Shown here in pieces: positions 22,982 to 64,000 of a DNA stretch of 64,000 nt. The notes under the pieces are model-generated. The model did no database searches. It was not told the DNA's origin and was given only the letters and a program-made list of their open reading frames with translations. The position numbers and the translations under genes were made by a program. Positions within the stretch are counted from its first letter, which is position 1; every line of letters begins with the position of its first letter. Source of the DNA: a virus; the IMG/VR virus record IMGVR_UViG_3300043540_000321, positions 96,001 to 160,000 of that record, one strand, 5' to 3'.

Positions 22982-23067
22982 GTTTGGAGCAAAGTCAGTC
23001 CTCGCTCCTAATGGGGAGATTCACGAGTTGGTCTCCCCTTCCTAATCCTCTCTTCAATCCGACCTTT

Positions 23068-23514
23068 ATGAGCACCCAATTAGACGATACAGAAGACTGC
23101 CCTGGTTCTATGAATCAGCTCGACAGCCTGAGCCTATTCCACAAGATGCTGGCCAACTCCTCAGTACAGTGCGGCTGTTGCGATCGCATTCTATCAATCT
23201 GGTACATCGGACCGGGGTGTCGTTTCATTCCCAGGCATAAACCACCTAAGAAGATAGACCTCCCGGTCAATGTCCGTGAACTCAGCTACTGCATCAGTCA
23301 AAGTCTCCTCAACACAGATTATTACCTGATGGGGGTGCCTATAGAGTTGAAGGGTGAAATCCTATTCATAGTCATCTCACTTCTTGACCCAGACTTGCAA
23401 GAGCTTAAGTATCGAAAGGCGTATACCCGGTTAGAACTCTCTCATTCCTGCCTTCCACCCAACGAACTTATAGTTCAAGATCTTAAGGAAGCACTAAACA
23501 AACCCATCCTATAA
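23068..23514 (+). CDS. hypothetical protein
   Basis: In-frame ATG of track ORF 22921..23514; CGCC motif. Confidence 0.55.
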   Translation: MSTQLDDTEDCPGSMNQLDSLSLFHKMLANSSVQCGCCDRILSIWYIGPGCRFIPRHKPPKKIDLPVNVRELSYCISQSLLNTDYYLMGVPIELKGEILFIVISLLDPDLQELKYRKAYTRLELSHSCLPPNELIVQDLKEALNKPIL

Positions 23515-23550
23515 AAATATAAAGTTTGGAGTCGAAAGACGATCCTCAAC

Positions 23551-23592
23551 AGGGAGCTTCTTCTGCGCGTGAACAGAGGCTCCCTTTTCTCT
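23551..23592 (+). terminator. putative intrinsic terminator
   Basis: AGGGAGCTTCT...AGAGGCTCCCT followed by TTTCTCTT. Confidence 0.5.
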
Positions 23593-23672
23593 TCCTATTA
23601 TCCTCTTGCTAGAAAAAATCCATTGGAAAAAATGACGCGGATTTGAGAGAGGGGTTGATTTGATCGATCCGA

Positions 23673-23723
23673 CCACCCCCGCCACTTATTGCAGATTAAT
23701 TTGCAACAAGTAGCGGGAGGTGG
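23673..23723. repeat. 51-bp imperfect palindrome centred on TTGCAGATTAATTTGCAA
   Basis: CCACC-CCCGC-C-ACTT-A-TTGCA...TGCAA-C-AAGT-A-GCGGG-A-GGTGG. Confidence 0.8.
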
Positions 23724-23794
23724 GTTCGCTTTCGCGACGTGTGCGTTGAAGCAAAGGGTCGATTAATTACTACCACTACGATTGGAGAGTCAAT

Positions 23795-24355
23795 ATGTTA
23801 CTCAGTGATAAGCCTTTTGTTATAGACAGAGGCAATGTACAGGCTATGAAAGCACATAGCCAGATAGGTAAACAGCGAGCCGCTCAAGGTCTCGAGGATT
23901 GGAATACACCTGAGGAGCTGAGAGGCAAAGAGGTTGAGCAATGTGTAGCTCGATTGTTAAATACCTGCTTGCAGGTAGACCAGGTAAAGCGAGCTAATAG
24001 GGGGTCTGTCTTAGATGACGAGGTCAAGGTTGACCTCCTAGTCTATGTAGGGAATGAGGTACAGGGGTTCCAAGTAAAGACTTCTCAAGCGGCAGCAGAG
24101 AGGTTTCATATGGAACACCCTGAAGTTCCATGTATCTGGTATGCAGGAACTAATAGACTCCAGCTCTGTGTAGCCATCGCTCAACTGCTTCACACAAAGA
24201 TGAAGCCAGTAGTTAAGAACGCTCTAATGAAGTTCGACCTACTGAAGTCTAAGAAAGTTAGCAATCCATCCGCACTGAGAAACCTCTTCAGTAAAGACGA
24301 GCAAACAGTCTGTGTTGTACTCGGACTACTTACTGAAAGAGCGTTTTCTAGCTAA
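23795..24355 (+). CDS. PD-(D/E)xK nuclease-fold protein
   Basis: DDEVKVDLLV...GFQVKTS pattern. Confidence 0.5.
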   Translation: MLLSDKPFVIDRGNVQAMKAHSQIGKQRAAQGLEDWNTPEELRGKEVEQCVARLLNTCLQVDQVKRANRGSVLDDEVKVDLLVYVGNEVQGFQVKTSQAAAERFHMEHPEVPCIWYAGTNRLQLCVAIAQLLHTKMKPVVKNALMKFDLLKSKKVSNPSALRNLFSKDEQTVCVVLGLLTERAFSS

Positions 24356-24388
24356 CCCATATAGGGGAAGACCAATAGTCTTCCCCTA

Positions 24389-24440
24389 CTCCGTCGCTGG
24401 GTATTGGTAGCCCAGCTTGAAAAGTTACTTCGAAACGGAG
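24389..24440 (+). ncRNA. type III hammerhead ribozyme 1 (U3-A8 core variant)
   Basis: CTCC-GTC / GCTGGG-loop-CCCAGC / TTGAAAA / G-TTACTT-C / GAAAC-GGAG; predicted cleavage after C24395. Confidence 0.7.
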
Positions 24441-24446
24441 GATTTT

Positions 24447-24656
24447 ATGGACAGCAAACTACTACAACTAATCGCCCTTTCTCAAACTACTGAAGTTGAT
24501 ACGACTCAAACGGTCTATCAACTCAAAGTTAAAGGAATTCCCTGTGGACTCTTTAACGAGATAGGCGATGCAGAAAACGCAGCCGAAGACGCTGGGTTCG
24601 ATTGTCGCGACTACCAAATAGTCGTCTTCTCAGAACCGGACGTTAAAGCCTGCTAA
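24447..24656 (+). CDS. hypothetical protein
   Basis: GGAGG RBS, ATG 24447. Confidence 0.75.
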   Translation: MDSKLLQLIALSQTTEVDTTQTVYQLKVKGIPCGLFNEIGDAENAAEDAGFDCRDYQIVVFSEPDVKAC

Positions 24657-24690
24657 GACTTAGTCCTGCGATCGAACGATCGCAGGACTT

Positions 24691-24744
24691 CTCCGTCGCT
24701 GGGTCTGGTAGCCCAGCTATGACAAGTTACCAAACGAAACGGAG
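24691..24744 (+). ncRNA. type III hammerhead ribozyme 2 (U3-A8 plus one-nt core insertion)
   Basis: CTCC-GTC / GCTGGG-TCTGGTAG-CCCAGC / TATGACAA / GTT-ACCA-AAC / GAAAC-GGAG; predicted cleavage after C24697. Confidence 0.6.
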
Positions 24745-24751
24745 GTCTATT

Positions 24752-25060
24752 ATGGCTACCACAACAACAGTTGCAACCGTAAATGAACTTAACTATCTGT
24801 CTGCTCGCCTGCGTGCAGAAGGGTTTGTCGTTAAAGTTCATAAGCTTGAGCAGGGTTGGGAGCTGACACTTTCCGAAGGCGGAAGGCCAAGCTCATTTCA
24901 ACCCAAACAAACGGAAACCGGTGAGGAGATTATCTTCTTTAACCTATCCGAGTTTAAGCGAGGTGAGGCAATGGCTGCCGATCTTCGCGAGCAAGGAATT
25001 GCTTGCAAGTTCGCTAAAGCCAAGAGTGGCAGATGTTGGTATCTCAAAAGACTTGCATAG
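24752..25060 (+). CDS. hypothetical protein
   Basis: GGAGG RBS, ATG 24752. Confidence 0.75.
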   Translation: MATTTTVATVNELNYLSARLRAEGFVVKVHKLEQGWELTLSEGGRPSSFQPKQTETGEEIIFFNLSEFKRGEAMAADLREQGIACKFAKAKSGRCWYLKRLA

Positions 25061-25073
25061 TCTACAACAAAAC

Positions 25074-25112
25074 AAACAAAAGAGGAGCTGAAAACAGCTC
25101 CTCTTTTGTTTT
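25074..25112. terminator. bidirectional hairpin terminator
   Basis: AAACAAAAGAGGAGCTG-AAAA-CAGCTCCTCTTTTGTTT. Confidence 0.65.
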
Positions 25113-25124
25113 AAGGAGGTCATT

Positions 25125-25283
25125 ATGTTGGAAGCAATCTTGATGGATTTAGCAATTGAATTAGTTGTTGATTGCGTGTTAGGTGCTGTTATTGCAGATG
25201 CTGAATTAGGAATTCTTGAACCTTTCGTCAGTGAAGGGGTAAAGGAGCTCGCTAAGAAGATCTACAAGAATCGCAAAGGCTGA
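25125..25283 (+). CDS. small hypothetical protein (52 aa)
   Basis: AAGGAGGT RBS; MLEAILMDLAIELVVDCVLG...KKIYKNRKG. Confidence 0.7.
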   Translation: MLEAILMDLAIELVVDCVLGAVIADAELGILEPFVSEGVKELAKKIYKNRKG

Positions 25284-25316
25284 ATTTATAGGGCAGAGAA
25301 AGTAATTTCTCTGCCC

Positions 25317-25374
25317 TGTTTTGGTCGCTGGGTATTAGTAGCCCAGCCTGACGAGTTACTACGAAACCAAAACA
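25317..25374 (+). ncRNA. type III hammerhead ribozyme 3 (canonical core)
   Basis: TGTTTTG-GTC / GCTGGG-TATTAGTAG-CCCAGC / CTGACGA / GT-TACT-AC / GAAAC-CAAAACA; 9-bp stem III; predicted cleavage after C25326. Confidence 0.88.
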
Positions 25375-25390
25375 AAGCGAGGACAAGATT

Positions 25391-26050
25391 ATGTTGACAA
25401 CTACAAATCTCCAACAACTGAATACTCTGACCGTTATCGTTCTTGAAGCTCAGAACACGGCTGACAATCTACGCCGGAGAGCTATTCGATCGATGACCAA
25501 CTACGACAATTGGACCGCGATTGCATTTGCAGCAGACTGGGCAGAACTAGATAGGAAAGCATACGCTGCCCTGTTCAATAGAAAGAATTACGACTTGCTG
25601 TGCAGCGCGATCGCCCTGGTCGTAACCATCTTCTGGACATGCTACGTGTCTGCGTGTGAAGCGATTGAATACCTGGCTGAAACGACTTCTCCGGTTGCGC
25701 CCAGTGTCTACTACTTCAGCCCACTCTATGTGATGGACCTGGATGACTATGAGGAACTTACTTGCGACCTATGGGCACCACCTGAACTGGATGAAAAGCT
25801 GGTCTGTGATGTTTGGGAGCTCGTTGAAGTCGAACCACTACCGACGGCAAATCCAGATGTAGAGGTTGCGATCACTGTCCAAACAAGTCTTTATCTCCTG
25901 CCGGCTGCTCCTGTTGAAGTTAATGATGTTGAGGATGAAAAGACGACAGTAGCGACTAAGCAGAAGAGGGCAAGCTCGAAGGCAAAAAAGTCCAGCCCAA
26001 AGGGAAAGTCGAGAACTTCCAAATCGAAGTCGACGAAACAGTGTGCATGA
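25391..26050 (+). CDS. hypothetical protein with one hydrophobic segment and a Lys/Ser-rich tail
   Basis: 219-aa ORF, GAGG RBS. Confidence 0.7.
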   Translation: MLTTTNLQQLNTLTVIVLEAQNTADNLRRRAIRSMTNYDNWTAIAFAADWAELDRKAYAALFNRKNYDLLCSAIALVVTIFWTCYVSACEAIEYLAETTSPVAPSVYYFSPLYVMDLDDYEELTCDLWAPPELDEKLVCDVWELVEVEPLPTANPDVEVAITVQTSLYLLPAAPVEVNDVEDEKTTVATKQKRASSKAKKSSPKGKSRTSKSKSTKQCA

Positions 26051-26089
26051 AGAAGTTTCACAGTTTTGTAACCAATAAGGAGGCCTATC

Positions 26090-27256
26090 ATGGCTACCAA
26101 CAATTTTGACCAATCAACCCTGTCGATCGTTGATGAACTCTTCAAGTCCTTGTTCAAGGAAGAAGATACAACGATTGAAGTCGCTGGCCGCAAATTTAGG
26201 CCAGCGGTCCTAAAACGGAATACGCTCAACCTTAGCGACGTTCCCAGGACAGTCCGGGAAACATTCTCTTTCCACAAAGACTCGATTGTTCAGCCCAGGG
26301 AACGGGGTCGGCACTCTATCATCGTCACGCTCCTCTCTATGAGGTTCTCTGACGATGGTCAGATGCTGGTTGCAGCTCCTTCTATCCAAGCCGCCACCTA
26401 TAGCGGAACATCTAAGATGTTGCCTGTAGGTGACTGGAACCAGAAGGCGGTACTCACAGGGCGGGACCTTTTCATTCAAGCGGATTTTATGAGCTCGGAT
26501 GATGGTCTCACTATTCTCAACCCTGTTGTTCTGAAACGTCCGTACCCAGCCGGTAAAGATGATGGAAACGTCTCCGTCATGCTGTGCGGTTCGAACAAGA
26601 CAGATAGCAACTGGAAGGAAAAGCACAACCATGCTCGAGACGAATTTAGGAAGGCAGCACTCAATGTTGCCCAGAGGTTAGGCGTCCCTTCCGGAGAACA
26701 GTTCATCATTTGCCTTGTTGGATTTCCGGTTAGGTCGGGAGAAAACAACGGTGAGACTGATTCGTTCTGGGGAGCCATCTTAGAAGGCGGTTACCTTCTG
26801 GGTGGTCGGCGCATCAACCGTGTTAGTAAGGCTCCAGACCCGAACGGCAAGCTAGGTGGTTTGAGAATCTCCTCAGATTTCCAAGTCACCTCCTGTAAAA
26901 CCGTGGCTCAAATGCTCGAAGAACAGTTAGCTGCTCAGTTAGCTACTCGATCTGTTCAGGTCGATCCTAAGTCTGAACCTGAACCTGAGCCAGTGCTTGA
27001 ACAACCTGAACCTGAACCTGAACCTGAACCTGAACCTGAACCTGAACCTGAACCCGTGGTTGAGCCTTCTCAACCACGGCGAGAAAGTCTCTTAGAGAAG
27101 TTGGGTCCGATAACCAATGACTCTGATGAATTTCAACTTCTCGAAGAGTCCTCGGACGATGAGGAAGAAGTGTTCATGGGCAGGGTCGGAAGCATCGCTG
27201 AATTGCTGAAAACCAATATCAAACCGGGCAGAGAGGATAATCCCTTCTGCCCTTAA
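26090..27256 (+). CDS. hypothetical protein with (EP)n linker and acidic tail
   Basis: 388 aa, AAGGAGG RBS; the tail ..EDNPFCP loosely resembles an SSB tip (weak). Confidence 0.65.
   Translation: MATNNFDQSTLSIVDELFKSLFKEEDTTIEVAGRKFRPAVLKRNTLNLSDVPRTVRETFSFHKDSIVQPRERGRHSIIVTLLSMRFSDDGQMLVAAPSIQAATYSGTSKMLPVGDWNQKAVLTGRDLFIQADFMSSDDGLTILNPVVLKRPYPAGKDDGNVSVMLCGSNKTDSNWKEKHNHARDEFRKAALNVAQRLGVPSGEQFIICLVGFPVRSGENNGETDSFWGAILEGGYLLGGRRINRVSKAPDPNGKLGGLRISSDFQVTSCKTVAQMLEEQLAAQLATRSVQVDPKSEPEPEPVLEQPEPEPEPEPEPEPEPEPVVEPSQPRRESLLEKLGPITNDSDEFQLLEESSDDEEEVFMGRVGSIAELLKTNIKPGREDNPFCP
27005..27054 (+). repeat. (CCTGAA)n hexamer microsatellite encoding (PE)n
   Basis: About eight perfect units, plus shorter copies at ~26972-26990. 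Confidence 0.9.
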
Positions 27257-46043: not shown

Positions 46044-46076
46044 GTGCTCGAGGAGTGCCAACCTATAACATAAAGA

Positions 46077-46147
46077 TGCCCCCAATAGGAATTGAACCTA
46101 TGTAGACCCTTTTAAGGAGGGTTGCATAACCACTATGCTATGGGAGC
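46077..46147 (-). tRNA. tRNA with UUA anticodon (ochre-suppressor-like or degenerate)
   Basis: Cloverleaf: GCTCCCA/TGGGGGC acceptor, GCAT/ATGC D-stem, ACCCT-CCTTAAA-AGGGT anticodon arm, ATAGG-TTCAATT-CCTAT T-arm; C33 instead of U33; no encoded CCA. Confidence 0.8.
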
Positions 46148-46187
46148 AAGTTAATAGAGTGTTCATCCATTTTAACGAGAGGACATT

Positions 46188-61040: not shown

Positions 61041-61129
61041 CTCCAGTAAATCGATCACAATTCTTCAGACGTTCTCTCTTAAGTTGAGGGAACGTCTGAT
61101 TTTTGCAACCCTACACCCAACGACGACCT

Positions 61130-64000
61130 ATGTACGACCTCCGTTACGTCGATGTTATAAACCCGATCTACCTGACAAAGGAATTCTTAGAGCCCTACGC
61201 AGCAAAGGAACCTCCCTTCGCAAATGCCGTCGCCCTCATCACAGCGATGAGAACTTACCTTCGCTTCGTCGACGAGTTCGGGCGGCGGGAGAAGTGGTGG
61301 GAGATGTGTCTCCGAGTTACGGAGTACAGCCTGTCTCTATACCGTGGACCCGCCTCGTTTGAAGAACTGAAGAAGGAGGCTGAGGAGTTCTTCGATCACA
61401 TCTTCAACCTGAAGATATTTCCTGCCGGCAGAACGATGTGGATTGGCGGAACGAAAGTTACCGACACCGACGGAACGAGCAACATGAATTGCAGCTTCAG
61501 AGTGATAGACTCTCTCGATGCCTATTCGGAGATGCTCTACCTATCTCTCTGTGGGTCTGGAACCGGGTTTTCTGTAGAACGACGATACGTTGATAAATTA
61601 CCCAAGTTGATTGTTCCTGAGGTAATCCACCAACCGTACAACCCTAAACCAAAGGACAAGCGGTACGAGAACACGATCGTTAAGGTTGGGACGAAGGAGT
61701 TCTCTCTTCGAACTCCTTATCTAATTAATAAATTTGACAGTTGCCTGGAGCGTCATGCCGACTCTGTCTCTGCCTTCGAGGCATCCATCACCGTCGGGGA
61801 TAGCAAAGTCGGCTGGGCTGTAGCCGTCAAGGCTCTTTTAAGACTGCTGACTTGTTATTCCATCAAGCAGATCATCATTAACTACGACAGCATTCGAAGG
61901 GCTGGCGAGAGGTTGATGACGTTCGGCGGGCGAGCGTCTGGGCCCGACCCTCTCCGTTGGTCGATCGGGCGCGTGATGGAAATTATTAAAGCGTGTGACG
62001 GAAGGTTGAGTTCGAGGGATGCGATGGATATCTCCAACATCCTCGGGTTCGCTGTCGTATCGGGTGGCGTCCGGCGCACCGCTCAGATTACCCTGGGAGA
62101 CATAGACGATGTGGACTTCATCACGGCCAAGTATGGGCTGTGGGATGAGAAAAACCACCCCGAGCTGAAGATATTCCAGGAAACGAGATCGCTCAGCAAC
62201 AACTCCGTCCATGTGTGGAAGAAGCCACCGCTGAAACAACTTAAGGATATTCTTGCTCGCGCTCGGTACAACGGCGAGCCCGGATTCTACATCGCAGAAA
62301 ACGCGCTGAAGCGTCATCCTAGATACAAGGGTACTAACCCATGTGGAGAGATCTTGCTGGACTCTTCTCAAACTTGTAACTTGTGTGAGGTAGTCGTTTC
62401 AGCCTTTGTCAAGAACGGTCGCTTCCAGTACAAAGAGTTCGAGTACGCTCTGCGTTTAGCCACTCGCCACGGCAGCCGAATTACTAATATTCAGATGTGG
62501 CATCCCGATTGGGATGTCATCCAAAAACGCGATCGCCTGCTCGGTGTCTCTCTAACCGGACAGGTTGACGCTTGGCAGATGTTGGGCTGGGCGTATCAGA
62601 TTAATGAAAGTGGATCCTACACCCACGGCACAGACGAGCGCGTCCAGGATGTGCTTCACCTGGCGAAGCAAGCTGTTCGAACGGAGGCTGATAGCTATCA
62701 TGCCGAGATGGGCATCCCTCAGTCGTTGTTAACAACATGCGTCAAACCCAGTGGTTGTAGACCCTGGAATGCTTTAACGACAACAGACCAAGGGGTATTA
62801 ACTTTGGAGGAGTTGTTGGAGAAGCACCCAGACGATAAGGTTTGGGGTGATATGGAGGGGTACAGAGCAGTAAATGAGGGAGTGCTGAGCAAAATTACCA
62901 AGTCATATAATAACGGAGTCGAAACTGTACACGACATACAGCTCTCTCTAGGGTTTAGACTTCAGTCAACCGGAAATCACCGCTGGTTTGTGAAAGAACG
63001 AGTAGTGCGTTCGGCAAACTCTAAGAGACGATTGGTACGATTGGTAGATGTGCATCAGTGGGTCGAAACTAAAGACCTTCAACCAGGAGATGTAATAGAA
63101 GTTCGGCCGAACACCTACAACAAAGTTGAAGAGGCCCCTCTACAGAGAGTAAATAAGCTTGCTTTTTCTATGCGGAACGATGCAACGCCTATCCTCCAAC
63201 CAGACCGAATGAACCCAGAACTCGGCTGGTTGTTAGGGTACCTCTGGGGAAATGGAGCCATGTCTCAGGGTGGATATAGAATCCGGTTTGTGGACGAGCT
63301 GCAAACCAAGTTAGAAAAGGTCGAACAGATATTGAGAAGTCAATTTGGTATTGACAGCTCTGTTCGAAAGTTAAATGACCGCAAGGCATTTTCTTTAGAG
63401 GTGGGTAGCAAACATCTATGGCACTGGCTGATAAAGAACGAGGTATGGAAGTACTATGCTGATGGGTTGGACATTATTCCAAAAATAGTGCGCTCTTCAT
63501 CGAGGGAAACTATTATTGCGTTCATTGCTGGTCTAGTTGACTCGGATGGATGGGTAGGTTACTCGAGAAAAGAACAACAGGTAAAAACTGTAGTCTTGTC
63601 GAGCGCGTACGACCTATTTGCAGAACATCTTCAGCATGTAGCTCTATCTGTGGGTTTGTGTATCGGAAGGTCGCTAAACTCAAAGGGAGATAACCTACAG
63701 GAACAAAAACATATCTGGTTGATGGGGTTCAACCAATATTCCGATTCAGAAAGTTTTGAAATTCTTTCAAAACACTCTCTGAAGATTCAATCCATCTACC
63801 ATTTACCTGGTAGATGGGTTCATGAAAACCCTGCCCGGAATACTAAACCTCTAGGAGAGGTTATATCGATACAAGAAAGTGGCGAAATGCCTACCTTCGA
63901 TATCGAAGTCGAAAACACTCACTGGTACTATGCCGGAGCGTTTAAGAGTCATAACACCGTTAGCCTGGTCGCTGGCTGTAGCTCGGGTGCTCATATGGGA
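61130..64000 (+). CDS. nrdJ: class II (AdoCbl-dependent) ribonucleotide reductase with intein; runs off the right edge
   Basis: Not in the ORF track (no stop in window). FPAGRTMWIGG, NCSF, GSGTGFSVE, GDSKVGW, FGGRASGP, GGVRRTAQI, TNPCGEI and TCVKPSG|T motifs. Confidence 0.92.
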   Translation, partial: MYDLRYVDVINPIYLTKEFLEPYAAKEPPFANAVALITAMRTYLRFVDEFGRREKWWEMCLRVTEYSLSLYRGPASFEELKKEAEEFFDHIFNLKIFPAGRTMWIGGTKVTDTDGTSNMNCSFRVIDSLDAYSEMLYLSLCGSGTGFSVERRYVDKLPKLIVPEVIHQPYNPKPKDKRYENTIVKVGTKEFSLRTPYLINKFDSCLERHADSVSAFEASITVGDSKVGWAVAVKALLRLLTCYSIKQIIINYDSIRRAGERLMTFGGRASGPDPLRWSIGRVMEIIKACDGRLSSRDAMDISNILGFAVVSGGVRRTAQITLGDIDDVDFITAKYGLWDEKNHPELKIFQETRSLSNNSVHVWKKPPLKQLKDILARARYNGEPGFYIAENALKRHPRYKGTNPCGEILLDSSQTCNLCEVVVSAFVKNGRFQYKEFEYALRLATRHGSRITNIQMWHPDWDVIQKRDRLLGVSLTGQVDAWQMLGWAYQINESGSYTHGTDERVQDVLHLAKQAVRTEADSYHAEMGIPQSLLTTCVKPSGCRPWNALTTTDQGVLTLEELLEKHPDDKVWGDMEGYRAVNEGVLSKITKSYNNGVETVHDIQLSLGFRLQSTGNHRWFVKERVVRSANSKRRLVRLVDVHQWVETKDLQPGDVIEVRPNTYNKVEEAPLQRVNKLAFSMRNDATPILQPDRMNPELGWLLGYLWGNGAMSQGGYRIRFVDELQTKLEKVEQILRSQFGIDSSVRKLNDRKAFSLEVGSKHLWHWLIKNEVWKYYADGLDIIPKIVRSSSRETIIAFIAGLVDSDGWVGYSRKEQQVKTVVLSSAYDLFAEHLQHVALSVGLCIGRSLNSKGDNLQEQKHIWLMGFNQYSDSESFEILSKHSLKIQSIYHLPGRWVHENPARNTKPLGEVISIQESGEMPTFDIEVENTHWYYAGAFKSHNTVSLVAGCSSGAHMG
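62756..63955 (+). mobile_element. 400-aa intein with LAGLIDADG homing endonuclease
   Basis: Inserted at KPSG/TVS; starts with Cys (CRPWNAL), ends KSHN before Thr; LGWLLGYLWGNG and FIAGLVDSDG motifs. Confidence 0.92.

Follow-up and report, generated by a model that had tools for sequence, protein, structure and literature searches.

In a subfamily of phage hammerhead ribozymes, the presence of a Shine–Dalgarno sequence (SD) on the 3′ strand of stem III is a recurrent, non-random trait. Two of the three hammerheads encoded in one 195-kb phage record have this arrangement, in which the helix that holds the ribosome binding site (RBS) of the next gene would be lost on self-cleavage. Clustered phage hammerheads, and the engineered principle of placing an SD within a ribozyme stem, are known already; what appears to be new here is a natural SD serving as a strand of stem III, and the recurrence of that layout.

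Three hammerhead elements in a phage gene run

The window, as the term is used here, is the whole 64,000-nucleotide stretch analyzed (positions 96,001 to 160,000 of IMG/VR record IMGVR_UViG_3300043540_000321, a phage record of 195,211 bp). Three near-identical elements on its + strand, lying within 1 kb and between small open reading frames (ORFs), each have a type III hammerhead layout as read from the sequence: the 5′ strand of stem III comes first, then GUC (the cleavage triplet in all three copies) and a hairpin that forms stem I; after the core and a very short stem II, GAAA leads into the 3′ strand of stem III. Three helices surround the junction, which is open at stem III, while stems I and II are closed by loops, as in type III. 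The motif common to the three copies gave three matches against zero expected by chance, and a genome scan with a covariance model found them to be the only copies in the 195,211-bp record. A fourth, weak model match (G000:C1:22765-22813) proved on reading to be without the hammerhead core and was rejected as a chance hit. The elements and the features adjoining them are arranged as follows.

24362–24388 (+): hairpin 1, 11 bp with loop CAAUA; folds at −18.4 kcal/mol, with a 0-nt gap to stem III of hammerhead 1
24389–24441 (+): hammerhead 1, type III; predicted cut after C24395; 82.4 bits with R1; covariation
24389–24394 (+): hammerhead 1, stem III 5′ strand, CUCCGU
24395 (+): hammerhead 1, C17 (predicted cleavage site)
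24396–24416 (+): hammerhead 1, stem I
24406–24409 with 24426–24429 (+): hammerhead 1, loop I/loop II pseudoknot
24417–24423 (+): hammerhead 1, core UUGAAAA (U3/A8)
24424–24431 (+): hammerhead 1, stem II and its loop
24432–24435 (+): hammerhead 1, GAAA
24435–24440 (+): hammerhead 1, stem III 3′ strand, ACGGAG
24437–24441 (+): SD1, GGAGG, four of five bases paired in stem III; spacer AUUUU (5 nt), then ATG 24447
24447–24656 (+): 69-aa ORF, ATG 5 nt past SD1; no known family
24662–24689 (+): hairpin 2, 12 bp with loop GAAC; −21.5 kcal/mol, directly 5′ of stem III of hammerhead 2
24690–24745 (+): hammerhead 2, type III; predicted cut after C24697; 71 bits; covariation
24690–24696 (+): hammerhead 2, stem III 5′ strand, UCUCCGU
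24697 (+): hammerhead 2, C17
24739–24745 (+): hammerhead 2, stem III 3′ strand, ACGGAGG
24741–24745 (+): SD2, five of five bases paired, the last as G-U; 6-nt spacer, then ATG 24752
24752–25060 (+): 102-aa ORF, an orphan; ATG 6 nt past SD2; database gene call with the same start
25291–25316 (+): hairpin 3, 11 bp, followed by UGUUUUGG
25317–25374 (+): hammerhead 3, type III, with canonical core CUGACGA; predicted cut after C25326; 80.8 bits
25379–25393 (+): SD GAGGA (25379–25383) and ATG 25391 of a 219-aa ORF; 4 nt past stem III of hammerhead 3, outside the ribozyme

The initial annotation had read ACGGAG(G) as the 3′ strand of stem III in copies 1 and 2, including a GGAGG placed 5–6 nt before ATG 24447 and ATG 24752. 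This reading is borne out at 24435–24441 and 24739–24745, and the pairing with the upstream CUCCGU is confirmed in the sequence of both copies. The core of hammerhead 2 is UAUGACAA, with U3, A8, and one inserted base before U4. In hammerhead 3, stem III comprises 9 bp, formed by UGUUUUGGU (25317–25325) and ACCAAAACA (25366–25374), and holds no SD; the U-rich UGUUUUGG that follows hairpin 3 resembles a terminator tail and doubles as the 5′ strand of this stem. In the lowest-energy fold of uncut copy 1, CCAUA (24357–24361), upstream of hairpin 1, pairs with UAUGG (24446–24450), which includes the start codon, so that cleavage would also free the AUG; nothing comparable is seen in copy 2.

The consecutive genes of the operon (69, 102, 52, 219, 388, 1442, and 713 aa) all have a GGAGG- or AGGAG-type SD 4–7 nt before the ATG, and the start of the 102-aa gene matches an independent gene call in a protein database; the SD assignment is sound. 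The ORFs adjoining the ribozymes have no PHROGs or Pfam match, and a protein database search with the 102-aa protein returned no homologue but itself. The 69-aa and 102-aa proteins are not paralogues. Positions 23000–27000 of the window gave no blastn match in a phage collection.

The gap at 25070–25124 is the only one of the gene run without a ribozyme. It contains a 17-bp terminator-like hairpin with the same reading on both strands, whose arms are SD-like and anti-SD-like (GAGGAG/CUCCUC), and it adjoins the AAGGAGG SD of the 52-aa ORF (ATG 25125). The stem of hairpin 2 (24668–24684) is made of two GCGATCG-type palindromic words (GCGATCGAACGATCGC), which we take to resemble the cyanobacterial HIP1 repeat and which may hint at the host. 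TAA is the stop codon of both genes that precede hammerheads 1 and 2. Elsewhere in the window, at 46075–46148 (−), ARAGORN reports a "tRNA-Stop" with anticodon UUA that would read UAA (61 bits with the Rfam tRNA model), a possible phage ochre-suppressor tRNA; read-through of the TAA that ends the gene before hammerhead 2 would bring ribosomes into hairpin 2 and hammerhead 2. Pfam matches at 61103–64000 (+) show a class II ribonucleotide reductase gene split by an intein that contains a LAGLIDADG homing-endonuclease domain.

A compact subfamily and its covariation

The Rfam 15 hammerhead models have no match in the window at the gathering threshold, nor in positions 24300–25450 at E ≤ 10, and eight other loci of the subfamily likewise gave no Rfam hammerhead match at E ≤ 1. 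The short stem II is the likely cause. Because the curated models missed these elements, a covariance model was built from the three window copies. IMG/VR was scanned with two patterns, neither of which constrains stem III or any position downstream of C15.2; the scan returned 64 matches, 47 of them distinct.

Over the 47 distinct sequences, pairing in stem I stands at 99.7%, and double-sided changes occur at all seven of its pairs and at five of the seven in stem III; when the partners are slid out of register, pairing drops to 27–48%. The U16.1-A15.1 and G16.2-C15.2 pairs are invariant (47/47). Loop I GGUA pairs with loop II UACC, with 86% of cells paired in the same set, and one pair of this pseudoknot covaries (G-C, A-U, G-U); copy 3 has AGUA/UACU. 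Stem II is 1–3 bp long throughout the subfamily, and the whole element spans 53–58 nt with no extra domain.

Core positions 3 and 8 also covary. C-G is usual, U-A occurs five times (copies 1 and 2, L155, L087, and L299), and A-U occurs once (L128:2139-2195); A8 is always accompanied by U3 (5/5). Compared with the CUGANGA consensus, copy 3 is canonical (CUGACGA…GAAA), copy 1 has U3/A8, and copy 2 has U3/A8 plus the extra base before U4. Such a base between position 3 and U4 (UAUGA, CUUGA, UUUGA) recurs in several lineages, including that of copy 2. The near-identical ribozymes L135:3088-3145 and L153:299-357 have as their sole difference one extra U between C3 and U4; the insertion is therefore polymorphic and apparently tolerated. 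As judged from sequence, the elements are genuine members of the hammerhead class, forming a subfamily outside the curated models, and self-cleavage is predicted for them.

Some loci match the model while having a longer, ordinary stem II and no GGUA/UACC pseudoknot (L312:8670-8726, L312:9818-9874, L333:792-848, L047:7200-7257, and L048:8071-8128). Those in L047 and L048 lie 0.3–0.6 kb from a subfamily member on the same contig, which indicates that these phages mix architectures. In a collection of prokaryote genomes, the pattern matched at least 119 stretches; among the 80 loci listed, only L173, labelled as a Candidatus Woesebacteria MAG, passed the covariance model, with two matches. On the basis of these 80 listed matches, the subfamily seems to be uncommon in cellular genomes and to occur mostly in virus-like contigs.

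The Shine–Dalgarno sequence as a strand of stem III

A census of 63 unique relatives from viral and metagenome contigs, an independent metagenome sample among them, recorded for each distinct member where stem III lies, which SD is best, and which start codon is the first with an SD before it. Of the 63, 25 (about 40%) have an SD-like 4-mer on the stem III 3′ strand, as compared with 1/63 for the 5′ strand (sign test p = 8e-7). Counted by similarity cluster, the same census gives 12/28 for the 3′ strand and 1/28 for the 5′ strand, and in the independent metagenome sample an SD again lies in stem III in 6 of ~17 new members. The register is fixed: A15.1 and C15.2 are followed by one free base N, and then by GGAG. 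All 25 members with an SD in the stem have a start codon 12–18 nt past A15.1. Of the members whose start lies ≤18 nt from A15.1, 25/29 have an SD in stem III, versus 0/27 of those with a farther start (Fisher p = 4e-12). That SD words appear in stem III only where a start codon is nearby indicates that they are true SDs, as opposed to something the ribozyme itself needs. Most of the downstream proteins bear no relation to one another (43 proteins fall into 33 clusters), which argues that the layout was not inherited together with one gene.

The distance from A15.1 to the start codon is at its minimum, 12–17 nt, in 26/56 members, and is ≤25 nt in 43/56. A stable hairpin lies 0–2 nt upstream of stem III in about 28/47 members, including all three window copies. 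The placement of hairpin, SD, and start codon across members indicates that the unit is a cassette, consisting of hairpin, hammerhead, SD, and start codon in that order. In most of the other members the SD starts 0–7 nt after stem III, and ~60% of the subfamily has its SD outside the stem. Since these SDs lie just outside stem III, the function common to the subfamily appears to be processing right before the RBS; that most relatives leave the SD unmasked argues against masking as a requirement.

Cleavage, proposed unmasking, and alternative readings

A hammerhead cuts 3′ of C17, leaving a 2′,3′-cyclic phosphate on the upstream end and a downstream RNA that starts with a 5′-OH at the first base of stem I. 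Applied to the window, an early polycistronic RNA would fold into the ribozyme once the 3′ strand of stem III had been transcribed; as this strand is the SD, the RBS would be masked inside the three-way junction. The ribozymes would then cut after C24395 and C24697. With this geometry the upstream fragment takes the 5′ strand of stem III away with it, so the anti-SD strand CUCCGUC would stay on the upstream RNA, which would now end in a protective hairpin followed by CUCCGUC with its 2′,3′-cyclic phosphate; hairpin 1 would form the 3′ end structure of the first such product. Held by 6–7 bp only, CUCCGUC would dissociate. At the 5′ end of the downstream mRNA, stem I and the pseudoknot would form a compact domain with a single-stranded SD right behind it, and translation of the 69-aa and 102-aa genes would be licensed by processing. 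We judge it somewhat more probable than the contrary that the hairpin–ribozyme–SD–start cassette works in this way, cutting being what unmasks the SD, as a constitutive, one-way licensing step and not as one that responds to a signal. What the sequences show directly is the hammerhead architecture with its covariation, the SD lying in stem III, and the excess of that placement among relatives; cleavage in vivo and an effect on expression are inferred.

For copies 1 and 2, computed energetics point in the same direction. In the most stable predicted structure of the uncut RNA, the hairpin and the three-way junction both form and the SD is paired; the predicted cost of opening the region from SD to start is lower after cleavage, at 6.7 instead of 10.9 kcal/mol in copy 1 and 6.9 instead of 10.8 kcal/mol in copy 2. 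The initial annotation had proposed copy 3, with its RBS outside stem III, as an internal control; its SD indeed lies 4 nt beyond the stem, and its predicted cost is unchanged (5.2 to 5.3 kcal/mol). The same annotation had held that CUCCGUC leaves with the upstream fragment and can dissociate, which agrees with type III geometry and with a predicted product duplex of about −6 kcal/mol in copies 1 and 2 (Kd about 15–100 µM); the predicted Kd for the 9-bp stem of copy 3 is in the nM range. Subfamily-wide, accessibility improves only modestly: the median predicted gain is 1.3 kcal/mol where the SD is in the stem and about 0.2 in the remaining members (p = 0.016). Predictions on longer fragments are noisy, with SD1 only 17% unpaired after the hammerhead 1 cut alone. 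Also weighing against licensing by processing are the non-canonical cores of copies 1 and 2 and, for copy 1, a predicted re-pairing of SD1 with the 3′ tail of the 69-aa mRNA once both ribozymes have cut. The further proposal that self-cleavage switches translation on is thus partly supported: unmasking of the RBS by cleavage (a predicted ~4 kcal/mol in copies 1 and 2) is well grounded structurally and comparatively, while the term "switch," which implies regulation, overstates the case, given the absence of a sensing domain and the ~60% of members with the SD outside the stem.

An appreciable, though minor, chance must be given to the overlap being a by-product of compaction. The ribozymes would then do no more than divide the operon into single-gene mRNAs, stem III would reach the SD owing to a ribozyme packed as near the start codon as geometry allows, and fast cleavage would leave masking without a measurable effect on expression. 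The accumulation of A15.1-to-start distances at their minimum is consistent with such packing, as are the SDs placed 0–7 nt past the stem in many members, the several members with only three SD bases paired in a 5-bp stem, and the small gain in accessibility across the subfamily. However, window copies 1 and 2 pair 4–5 of their five SD bases, at the higher predicted opening cost in the uncut state, and their variant cores may cut slowly, in which case masking would matter. Another reading, which we consider improbable, is a timed or regulated switch in which cleavage would be rate-limiting and tuned by core variants (U3/A8, the extra base), Mg2+, or temperature, turning early genes on in order; as part of it, the hammerhead 2 cut would leave mRNA 1 with an anti-SD strand at its 3′ end and so shut gene 1 down once more, in the manner of a relay. 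Variant cores are found in both of the window copies that place an SD in the stem, the core of copy 3 being canonical, and the stem III strands of copies 1 and 2 are identical. The 302-nt RNA that both cuts would excise (24396–24697) contains ACGGAGGA close to the 5′ end and terminates in UUCUCCGUC; its 3′ tail is predicted to pair with its own SD (P about 0.98), leaving SD1 4% unpaired and rebuilding a complete nicked hammerhead. Because copies 1 and 2 share the same stem III, the tail of the 69-aa mRNA could re-pair its own SD after both cuts, and this could re-silence the 69-aa gene or allow circularization. Coincidence is an equally good explanation: both stems are "AC + GGAGG," and A15.1 and C15.2 plus GGAGG yield identical stems automatically. 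The copies have no sensing domain, the other two-ribozyme loci (L075, L048, and L047) are without matching stems, and spliced or circular products of tandem hammerheads have been sought and none found (Perreault et al., 2011; PMC3088659). A full ribozyme relay is quite improbable as well: the hammerhead 1 cut would turn the 69-aa gene on, and the hammerhead 2 cut would turn the 102-aa gene on while giving the 69-aa mRNA an anti-SD CUCCGUC 3′ end, and thereby a closed-loop silenced or a circular form, the latter if the ribozyme itself, or an RtcB-type ligase of the host, joined the ends. If true, it would mean that an early phage gene is expressed as a timed pulse.

The remaining readings depart further from licensing by processing. 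Ribosome and ribozyme need the same bases, and members within about 25 nt of the start would clash with a bound ribosome; control could thus run inversely, an SD-bound 30S subunit preventing stem III from forming, so that initiation on uncut RNA blocks cleavage and only untranslated transcripts are cut. This is very unlikely, as the anti-SD strand is transcribed first and in cis, and from general RNA folding kinetics closure of the helix should outrun 30S binding. It is likewise highly improbable that copies 1 and/or 2 are catalytically dead relics, whose stem III would permanently occlude the SD and attenuate the two small genes. Their cores do depart from CUGANGA, and insertions near C3 crippled a natural halophile hammerhead variant (PMC3088659), copy 2 having its extra base next to position 3; however, U3/A8 is a known active covariation (PMC3088659), and UAUGA and CUUGA insertions are seen repeatedly, in several separate lineages whose ribozymes are otherwise intact and covarying. 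Scarcely credible is the proposal that the hairpin modules are DNA-level promoters for one of the phage's unusual RNA polymerases, with the hammerhead likeness secondary. A promoter scan found no sigma-70-like promoter on the + strand of 23500–26200, which would suit such promoters, but hairpins 1, 2, and 3 have no sequence in common, many unrelated viral contigs also combine a hairpin with a ribozyme in this layout, and the stems tolerate G-U on this strand only (for example, 18 U-G at pair 16-24), a signature of RNA structure.

The unmasking of an SD by ribozyme cleavage has engineered parallels. Hammerhead RBS switches in E. coli were reportedly constructed by Wieland and Hartig in 2008 and by Ogawa and Maeda in 2008. 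In engineered E. coli hammerheads, the SD lies inside a ribozyme stem and cleavage controls access to the RBS (PMC7445771). Common to these designs and to the window copies is an SD paired in a ribozyme helix whose complementary strand leaves on cleavage; the engineered switches are type I, their SD being placed in a lengthened stem I and their cleavage gated by an aptamer, whereas the natural elements are type III, with the SD in stem III and no aptamer. The window copies contain no ligand-sensing domain of the kind that marks such switches, and with no aptamer any control would be constitutive or kinetic. RiboJ-type insulators, attributed to Lou et al. in 2012, are said to use a leader hammerhead to remove upstream RNA and leave a defined 5′ end before the RBS. 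RiboJ is synthetic, and an added hairpin exposes its RBS; in the window, the RBS would be exposed as its partner strand leaves.

Among natural systems, clustered prophage hammerheads that flank genes, have stem I/II pseudoknots, and include a natural, active U3/A8 covariation were described by Perreault et al. (2011; PMC3088659); clustered phage hammerheads were proposed to cut long transcripts into single-gene mRNAs, and loop–loop pseudoknots are known in all three hammerhead types (PMC3088659). Those clusters and the window have in common several hammerheads in adjacent intergenic gaps of a phage operon, flanking single genes or short blocks. The window subfamily differs in the SD that forms the 3′ strand of stem III, in fixed register, in ~40% of members, in a stem II of 1–3 bp, and in being missed by Rfam 15; the main text of the 2011 paper makes no mention of "translation" or "ribosome binding site" (PMC3088659). 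In haloviruses HF1 and HF2, the HHphage element precedes a start codon by 13 nt, has additional bases beside C3, and coincides at its cleavage site with the mapped 5′ end of a transcript (PMC3088659). Unlike the window copies, it belongs to an archaeal virus, has a two-base insertion and salt-dependent activity, and is described there with no SD-in-stem relation (PMC3088659). A 2026 paper links self-cleaving ribozymes directly upstream of ORFs, some with a helix II of 1–2 bp, to translation initiation in eukaryotic RNA viruses; these differ from the window copies in serving cap-independent translation, in being type I, and in having neither loop–loop contacts nor an SD. A crystallographic pseudoknot hammerhead (PMC11300833) was considered as the closest match and rejected, its helix II being replaced by a pseudoknot to an extra stem–loop, a different architecture. 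An incomplete literature search, covering few subscription journals and therefore weak as evidence, turned up no paper that reports a natural hammerhead with an SD in one of its stems.

A 2019 review regarded a role of bacterial hammerheads in mRNA processing as only suggested, with more work needed (PMC6765202). An SD within stem III offers a specific and falsifiable job for phage hammerheads, in that the helix lost on cleavage is the one hiding the RBS of the next gene. As the compact subfamily (about 55 nt) is missed by current Rfam models, phage hammerheads are probably undercounted. The layout recurs before many unrelated phage genes, and would be a natural counterpart of the ribozyme switches and insulators of synthetic biology.
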